64,000 nt of DNA from Escherichia coli. Its GTDB lineage: Bacteria; Pseudomonadota; Gammaproteobacteria; Enterobacterales; Enterobacteriaceae. The position numbers and the translations under genes were made by a program. Positions within the stretch are counted from its first letter, which is position 1. Each line of letters opens with the position of its first letter. A model generated the notes under the pieces. It searched no databases. It saw only the letters and a program-made list of their open reading frames with translations, and was not told the DNA's origin. The DNA lies in the NCBI RefSeq assembly GCF_003334785.1, contig NZ_QOWV01000004.1; one strand, given 5' to 3'. Positions 62,873-63,802 of this stretch are shown piece by piece.

Positions 62873-63802
62873 CTACTCCGTTGGAGGTAGCCACGGACGT
62901 CCCAGCGCCGATCCCTGTACGCCATGTTCATTCAGATAGCGATCCAGCTCGACCATTCCCGTCCATCGATTTTCGCACCACAGCGGAGCAAGCAGCGTCG
63001 GGCGACGGGCGCTGGCGGAAATGCGGTGGTAGATCACTTCCGGTGGCGTATGGCGAATCATTTCTCCGGCAGTGAGCGTGTAATCCTCCAGTTCAATACC
63101 GTTCAAACGCCCCGCTTCCCAGGCTTTCGCCATAATGCTGCCTTTCACAATATGCAGCGGATGCAGCTTTATGCCGTCCACGCCGGTTTCAACCACTCGC
63201 TCCAGCGTTTGCAAACATTCAGCCTGCCCTTCGCCAGGCAGGCCGACAATTAAGTGGGAACACACCTTCAGCCCGCGCTGACGTGCCAGCTGGGTTGTAC
63301 GCTGATAACAGGCAAAATCATGGCCGCGGTTGATGCGATGCAGTGTTTTGTCGTGGGCGGTTTGTAGCCCCAGCTCCAGCCACACTTCGTAACCCTGGTC
63401 CTTATATTCGCAAAGCAGATCCAGCACCGCATCCGGCACGCAGTCCGGGCGGGTACCCACACACAAACCGACAATATTGGCCTGGCTCACCGCCTGCTGA
63501 TACATAGAACGCAGCACCTGAACTTCCGCAAAGGTGCTGGTATACGCCTGAAAGTAGGCCAGATAGCGTTTAGCGCGGTTAACTAAATTCGCCTGGTGCG
63601 CCAGTTGCTCGGCAATGGAACGATGCTGCTGCGCTTCATCGGCAAACGAGGCAACATTACAGAATGTGCAGCCACCACGCCCGATGGTACCGTCACGGTT
63701 AGGGCAGCTAAAACCGCCGTGCAGCGTCAGCTTATGCACCTTTTGCCCATAACGACGGGTGAGATCACCACCAAACATATTGACTAATTTCTGTAACTGC
63801 AT
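62873..63802 (-). CDS. yhcC: radical-SAM-family protein of unknown function, 309 aa
   Basis: ATG at 63802 (MQLQKLVNMFGGDLT); Cys cluster SCPNRDGTIGRGGCTFCNV; ORF-track start at 63835 is an extension. Confidence 0.9.
   Translation of the reverse strand: MQLQKLVNMFGGDLTRRYGQKVHKLTLHGGFSCPNRDGTIGRGGCTFCNVASFADEAQQHRSIAEQLAHQANLVNRAKRYLAYFQAYTSTFAEVQVLRSMYQQAVSQANIVGLCVGTRPDCVPDAVLDLLCEYKDQGYEVWLELGLQTAHDKTLHRINRGHDFACYQRTTQLARQRGLKVCSHLIVGLPGEGQAECLQTLERVVETGVDGIKLHPLHIVKGSIMAKAWEAGRLNGIELEDYTLTAGEMIRHTPPEVIYHRISASARRPTLLAPLWCENRWTGMVELDRYLNEHGVQGSALGRPWLPPTE

Follow-up and report, generated by a model that had tools for sequence, protein, structure and literature searches.

The nearest described counterpart of YhcC is MnmL/YtqA of Bacillus subtilis and the streptococci (TIGR01212, IPR005911, COG1242). 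YtqA was identified as MnmL in a 2023 preprint that also placed YtqA and YhcC in Megacluster-2-4-1 (10.1101/2023.12.21.572861), and the reaction reported for the two proteins is the same: cmnm5s2U is turned into nm5s2U, and the authors saw no residues that would separate the groups (PMC13228596). The differences lie around this shared step. The methyl group is added by MnmM in the case of MnmL/YtqA and by MnmC2 in the case of YhcC, and the MnmL/YtqA gene adjoins mnmM, whereas in E. coli yhcC lies beside arcB and gltB and is neither linked nor fused to mnmM or mnmC2. Linkage to an nm5s2U methyltransferase gene is typical of the Gram-positive MnmL/YtqA subgroup, but does not define the family model. 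Furthermore, E. coli has MnmC as well, hence YhcC is required only without O2.

The structures nearest to YhcC that have been solved belong to Elp3, the catalytic subunit of Elongator (TIGR01211; PDB 5l7j, 6ia6, 6qk7, 8asw, 8ptx). Elp3 and YhcC have in common the Radical_SAM_C domain, the TRPD and ELG-Q motifs and the C5 position of tRNA U34 as target, and both are placed in SFLD subgroup 8, named 'ELP3/YhcC', with a non-canonical spacing of the first cysteine (PMC9477430). Whereas Elp3 builds a side chain (cm5U), YhcC trims one. A third point of reference is MnmC1, the oxidoreductase domain of E. coli MnmC, which shares substrate and product with YhcC in the same cell. Fold and cofactor are unrelated: MnmC1 is an FAD enzyme and needs O2 (PMC13228596). 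MnmC1 and YhcC thus constitute a non-orthologous aerobic/anaerobic enzyme pair, like HemF and HemN, and the biological interest of the gene resides in the ability of this pair to sustain wobble-uridine modification in the absence of oxygen.

A lengthened first loop in the cluster-binding motif is also encountered in other radical SAM enzymes. Some QueE enzymes harbour a CX14CX2C motif. Clusters with CX4-, CX5-, CX7-, CX8- and CX9-CX2C motifs are listed in PMC9477430. The kind of variation is the same as in YhcC, but the families and substrates are different, and the inserted loop of YhcC is strongly conserved in its own right (P34, N35, D37, G38, G44).

The window analysed here is a stretch of 64,000 nucleotides of E. 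coli DNA (contig NZ_QOWV01000004.1). The yhcC coding sequence, for which the new name mnmL has been proposed, occupies 62873..63802 on the minus strand and translates into 309 amino acids followed by a stop codon; the RefSeq label of the product is 'TIGR01212 family radical SAM protein'. The peptide singled out by the sequence-only reading, an earlier annotation made without database searches, is indeed encoded by this ORF: SCPNRDGTIGRGGCTFC stands at residues 32–48 of the 309-aa translation. The coding DNA and the 198-bp stretch upstream are 100% identical to yhcC/b3211 of E. coli K-12 MG1655. A genome search recovered the yhcC region in 5417 of 5426 complete E. coli genomes, and in the five rows listed both yhcC and arcB are annotated beneath the match. 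Called mechanically, the ORF reaches back to a TTG at 63835 (320 aa); the RefSeq start is the ATG at 63802 (309 aa), and the database cluster representative P0001 is 324 aa long. The ATG start is adequate, as the match to the family model begins at residue 6 of the 309-aa protein.

The sequence-only reading had taken the product for a radical-SAM-like protein and had proposed to check it by profile search, structure prediction and an Fe–S and SAM cleavage assay; all three lines of evidence bear the idea out. The Pfam Radical_SAM core (PF04055) matches residues 43–202 (63197..63676, minus strand) with an i-Evalue of 6.6e-19, followed by the Radical_SAM_C domain (PF16199) that is common to Elp3, at residues 208–291 (62930..63181, minus strand; 2.1e-19). 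This layout of two domains and no further one within 309 aa is that of the MnmL/YtqA family. TIGR01212 is an NCBIfam equivalog with a cut-off of 180 bits, now named 'tRNA modification radical SAM protein MnmL/YtqA': YhcC scores well above this cut-off, reaching 472.9 bits, and the match is end to end, with residues 6–301 on model positions 1–301 of 302. An AlphaFold2 model computed from the family alignment is confident (pLDDT 96.4, pTM 0.93) and displays alternating strands and helices. In a Foldseek comparison with the PDB the eleven best matches are all Elp3 radical SAM domains (E 5.7e-17 to 4e-11, TM 0.60–0.74), and almost all the top 50 are radical SAM proteins, including Elp3, MgmA, RimO, MiaB, LipA, BioB, HydE and HemN. 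The predicted fold is therefore a partial or full (beta/alpha) barrel of the kind that marks radical SAM proteins. As for the assay, passages of PMC13228596 and of 10.1101/2021.10.08.463726 credit Estellon et al. 2014 with the finding that YhcC binds a [4Fe-4S] cluster and cleaves SAM. By its variant of the cysteine motif, its PF04055 match and its fold, YhcC belongs to the radical SAM superfamily.

The resemblance to Elp3 is confined to part of the protein. YhcC matches the Elp3 sequences in the PDB with E values of ∼1e-14 in a single-sequence search and 1e-25 in a profile search, over residues 105–292 only, and in neither search was the cysteine-motif region aligned to Elp3. The Elp3 model TIGR01211, whose cut-off is 350, gives 67.6 bits and is covered at positions 148–342 of 522 only. 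Elp3 proteins contain an acetyl-CoA-binding KAT/GNAT domain and are 450–580 aa long, whereas YhcC ends at residue 309 and a Pfam scan found no GNAT domain in it. Because this domain is missing, YhcC is Elp3-like and not an Elp3.

The cluster-binding motif, C33-PNRDGTIGRGG-C45-TF-C48, is located at 63659..63706 on the minus strand, with the cysteine codons at 63704–63706 (C33), 63668–63670 (C45) and 63659–63661 (C48). A spacing of C-x12-C-x2-C had been claimed for it; counting residues gives C33-x11-C45-x2-C48, that is Cx11CxxC. The accompanying claim that the motif is non-canonical stands, as CxxxCxxC is absent throughout the 309-aa protein. Compared with CX3CX2C, the first cysteine would lie 8 residues farther from the CxxC pair owing to a conserved loop insertion (PNRDG-x5-G). 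The Radical_SAM match opens just ahead of C45, and where canonical-motif enzymes (HemN, 1olt; RimO, 4jc0) are matched by profile, the alignment likewise begins at profile positions 43–46, starting points that fit an insertion between the first and the second cysteine.

A full HMMER search against 1.84 billion cluster representatives provided 939 relatives of YhcC at E ≤ 1e-30. Among the best 150 of these 939, the motif region was found in 140, the other ten being apparent fragments. The first cysteine precedes the CxxC pair by x11 in 131 of the 140, by x10 in five and by x9 in four; eight of the 131 x11 representatives have an extra cysteine within the loop. In an alignment of 110 representatives from 50%-identity clusters, 31–49% identical to YhcC, no variation is seen at C33, P34, G44, C45 and C48, and at least 90% of the sequences conserve N35, D37 and G38. 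On the strength of these comparisons the Cx11CxxC spacing is a trait of the family, neither a product of chance nor a peculiarity of the E. coli gene, and the residues of the inserted loop are conserved as well. The same spacing has already been catalogued: CX11CX2C is given for Megacluster-2-4-1 by RadicalSAM.org (PMC9477430), and apart from that article a literature search for 'CX11CX2C' returned only papers on zinc fingers. A fourth conserved cysteine, C121, lies outside the cluster motif in T117-R118-P119-D120-C121 (codon 63440..63442, minus strand). The residue is cysteine in 123 of 133 representatives (∼92%) and in at least 90% of the 110-sequence alignment. The Elp3 of D. mccartyi displays a cysteine one alignment position after C121.

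The function of yhcC had been described from sequence alone as unassigned, a statement that is outdated in the light of the NCBIfam family name and of a preprint of May 2026, according to which YhcC turns cmnm5s2U34 into nm5s2U34 in tRNA under anaerobic conditions, standing in for the O2-dependent MnmC1 (PMC13228596). Anaerobic deletion of yhcC leads to loss of mnm5s2U and build-up of cmnm5s2U, and the accumulation of nm5s2U in anaerobic mnmC deletion strains requires yhcC. Wild-type yhcC complements in vivo and the C33A variant does not; the KD of YhcC for tRNA is ∼5 µM, and the conversion of cmnm5s2U to nm5s2U in vitro is SAM-dependent (PMC13228596). One result in the same work counts against the MnmL assignment: aerobic overexpression of yhcC or mnmL lowers cmnm5s2U, yet nm5s2U and mnm5s2U were undetected. 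An earlier study had argued that the E. coli subgroup is not isofunctional with MnmL (10.1101/2023.12.21.572861), and the reversal of this view by PMC13228596 hinges solely on the switch to anaerobic growth. The functional evidence on YhcC consists of this one preprint, not yet peer reviewed.

Taken together, these data make it highly probable (about 0.9) that yhcC is the orthologue of MnmL/YtqA in enterobacteria and encodes an Elp3-like radical SAM enzyme whose target is the C5 side chain of the tRNA wobble uridine U34. In the mechanism proposed, C33, C45 and C48 would ligate a [4Fe-4S] cluster, and SAM would bind the fourth iron; cleavage of SAM by the reduced cluster would generate a 5'-deoxyadenosyl radical. 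The carboxymethyl group of cmnm5s2U34 would then be removed to leave nm5s2U34, which methylation by MnmC2 would convert to mnm5s2U. Chemically, the radical may abstract a hydrogen from the glycine-derived N-CH2-COO- carbon of cmnm5, and the substrate radical may be oxidised to an imine that is hydrolysed to nm5s2U and glyoxylate, the same products as those of MnmC1. The electron would probably go back to the single cluster, with no participation of an auxiliary cluster, because no set of auxiliary-cluster cysteines is conserved in the YhcC family. In the cell, yhcC activated by FNR would, in the absence of oxygen, take the place of MnmC1, an FAD oxidase domain dependent on O2.

Homologues in other genomes occur in varied settings. 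Among the longer representatives, the MnmL domain of P0237 is fused to a methyltransferase domain, MnmC2 (E 2.1e-32), and that of P0264 to an RluA-type pseudouridine synthase. Further partners in fusions are a phosphoglycolate-phosphatase-like HAD domain (P0151), a Maf nucleotide pyrophosphatase (P0194) and a Nudix/IPP-isomerase-like domain (P0154). The gene neighbourhoods of seven representatives (P0122, P0125, P0128, P0131, P0134, P0137, P0142) are mixed, and some unlabelled neighbours were scanned with NCBIfam to no informative result. In one of the seven, P0137, there is an overlap of the homologue (43% identity) with the end of mnmG/GidA, and the cmnm5 group is made by the product of mnmG. 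A role of YhcC/MnmL in the tRNA pathway draws supporting context from this adjacency and from the fusion with MnmC2.

A different arrangement is seen for two distant YhcC/MnmL homologues (51% and 45% identity), which are followed by ubiU with an overlap of ∼10 nt (L003:4198-6175, L004:5675-8495, L006:428-2951). The ubiU calls beside them rest on NF047963, with 559 and 465 bits against a cut-off of 440. In L004 a UbiV-like gene also follows, scoring 223 bits, below its cut-off of 275, and upstream in L003 are a divergent gene for a Crp/Fnr-family regulator and a hemerythrin gene. The adjacency of yhcC and ubiU is an operon-like link of two O2-independent replacement pathways; a literature search found no paper naming both genes.

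This arrangement is one ground for considering that tRNA is not the main physiological substrate of YhcC, which might, for example, have a part in quinone or redox metabolism under anaerobiosis and act on cmnm5s2U only secondarily. The presence of ubiU directly 3' of two distant homologues, the UbiV-like gene, the regulator and the hemerythrin gene would all suit such a role, as would the usual neighbours of yhcC in E. coli and its relatives, which are arcB and gltBD and not tRNA genes, and the consumption of cmnm5s2U without the expected product upon aerobic overexpression (PMC13228596). However, the link to ubiU is confined to two of the seven representatives, and sharing an operon with ubiUV is explicable by common anaerobic regulation of O2-independent replacement enzymes, whereas the MnmC2 fusion and the mnmG adjacency indicate the tRNA pathway. 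We regard a non-tRNA substrate as improbable.

Two further questions concern the way in which YhcC would work. One is whether C33 is a ligand at all: the cluster might sit on C45, C48 and a further residue, for instance C121, with the spacing being coincidental. The Pfam and PDB profile alignments to canonical enzymes, which start at 43–46 and leave C33 unaligned, can be read in this way, and C121 is conserved too. Nevertheless, C33 is invariant together with P34, with the conserved N35 beside it, whereas C121 is replaced in ∼8% of the representatives. Moreover, the C33A variant is without activity in vivo (PMC13228596), CX11CX2C is the SAM-cluster motif of this very cluster in RadicalSAM.org (PMC9477430), and an AlphaFold-based scan sees a 4Fe-4S site in YhcC, the passage concerned leaving the ligands unnamed (10.1101/2021.10.08.463726). 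A cluster without C33 thus appears very improbable. The other question concerns the chemistry. Loss of CO2 from -CH2-NH-CH2-COOH would formally yield -CH2-NH-CH3, so that a radical decarboxylation could lead from cmnm5s2U directly to mnm5s2U with the C–N bond uncleaved, and radical SAM decarboxylases such as HemN are related to YhcC by sequence. The published products contradict this route, which was rejected on these data and deserves next to no credence: anaerobic mnmC deletion strains build up nm5s2U and not mnm5s2U, formation of mnm5s2U still needs MnmC2, and nm5s2U is the product in vitro (PMC13228596).

Two additional ideas go beyond the MnmL/YtqA assignment, and both are speculative and on balance unlikely. 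The insertion (P34-N35-x-D37-G38 ... G44) may be a functional element and not just a spacer: the conserved loop could position the cmnm5 side chain or the tRNA U34 over the cluster or, alternatively, could gate the return of the electron to the cluster, making an auxiliary cluster needless. Separately, the yhcC-ubiU-ubiV arrangement of some proteobacteria might reflect a functional tie, beyond shared regulation, of anaerobic tRNA modification with O2-independent ubiquinone synthesis.

Turning to the surroundings of the gene in E. coli, yhcC had been described as convergent with arcB. In fact arcB (60441–62777) is also on the minus strand; it follows 95 bp after the yhcC stop, and the two genes are in tandem. 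The divergent orientation of gltB was described correctly: this gene starts outside the window, 674 bp upstream of the yhcC ATG, at ∼64477 if the numbering is extended. As a feature yhcC is real, well supported and already known, with a K-12 sequence, a catalogued motif and a reported function; what is contributed here is the correction of the spacing to x11 and of the arcB order to tandem, and the updating of the function statement to the MnmL assignment. A simple promoter and terminator scan of 62700–64000 found nothing, with neither a terminator-like nor a sigma-70-like site in the 95-bp spacer between yhcC and arcB (62778..62872, minus strand). Read-through into arcB from the FNR-activated yhcC promoter is conceivable.

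Regulation of yhcC by FNR is documented in a published study, in which the gene is FNR-bound and FNR-activated and the FNR ChIP peak is at 3,352,152 in old coordinates (Myers et al. 2013, PMC3688515). The best match to the FNR consensus in the K-12 yhcC-gltB intergenic region is TTGATCCAGGTCAT (63864..63877, minus strand), which has two mismatches to TTGAT-N4-ATCAA and is centred 68.5 bp upstream of the ATG. If the coordinates of the two genome versions are taken to differ by 1,977 bp, the ChIP peak would presumably fall at about position 63881 of the window, ∼10 bp from this site. The spacing between TTGATCCAGGTCAT and the sole nearby -10-like element misfits a textbook class II promoter, and FNR-like sites over the whole window number 38 against 30.8 expected, which is not above chance. 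Taken by itself, TTGATCCAGGTCAT is a weak candidate FNR site, a detail compatible with the published activation.

The best FNR-like matches in the window are four sites with one mismatch. One of these, TTGATAAAGATCAG at 9159–9172 on the plus strand, lies at the 3' end of the ORF 8684–9244; it was considered as a site linked to ubiUV and dropped once ubiTUV had been located at 10.5–13.1 kb. The E. coli ubiTUV genes are thus in the same window as yhcC, at 10504–13119, ∼50 kb away. The O2-independent ubiquinone gene ubiT is at 10504–11052 on the minus strand, and ubiU (11210–12232, true start near 11237) and ubiV (12223–13119) follow on the plus strand with an overlap of 10 nt. Finally, the small RNA ArcZ is encoded antisense to arcB at 60329–60436 on the plus strand (Rfam RF00081, 120.8 bits, gathering score 66). 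The Rfam match stops 5 bases short of the arcB ORF, and the K-12 arcZ annotation (3350577–3350697, window 60329–60449) overlaps the last 9 bases of this ORF.
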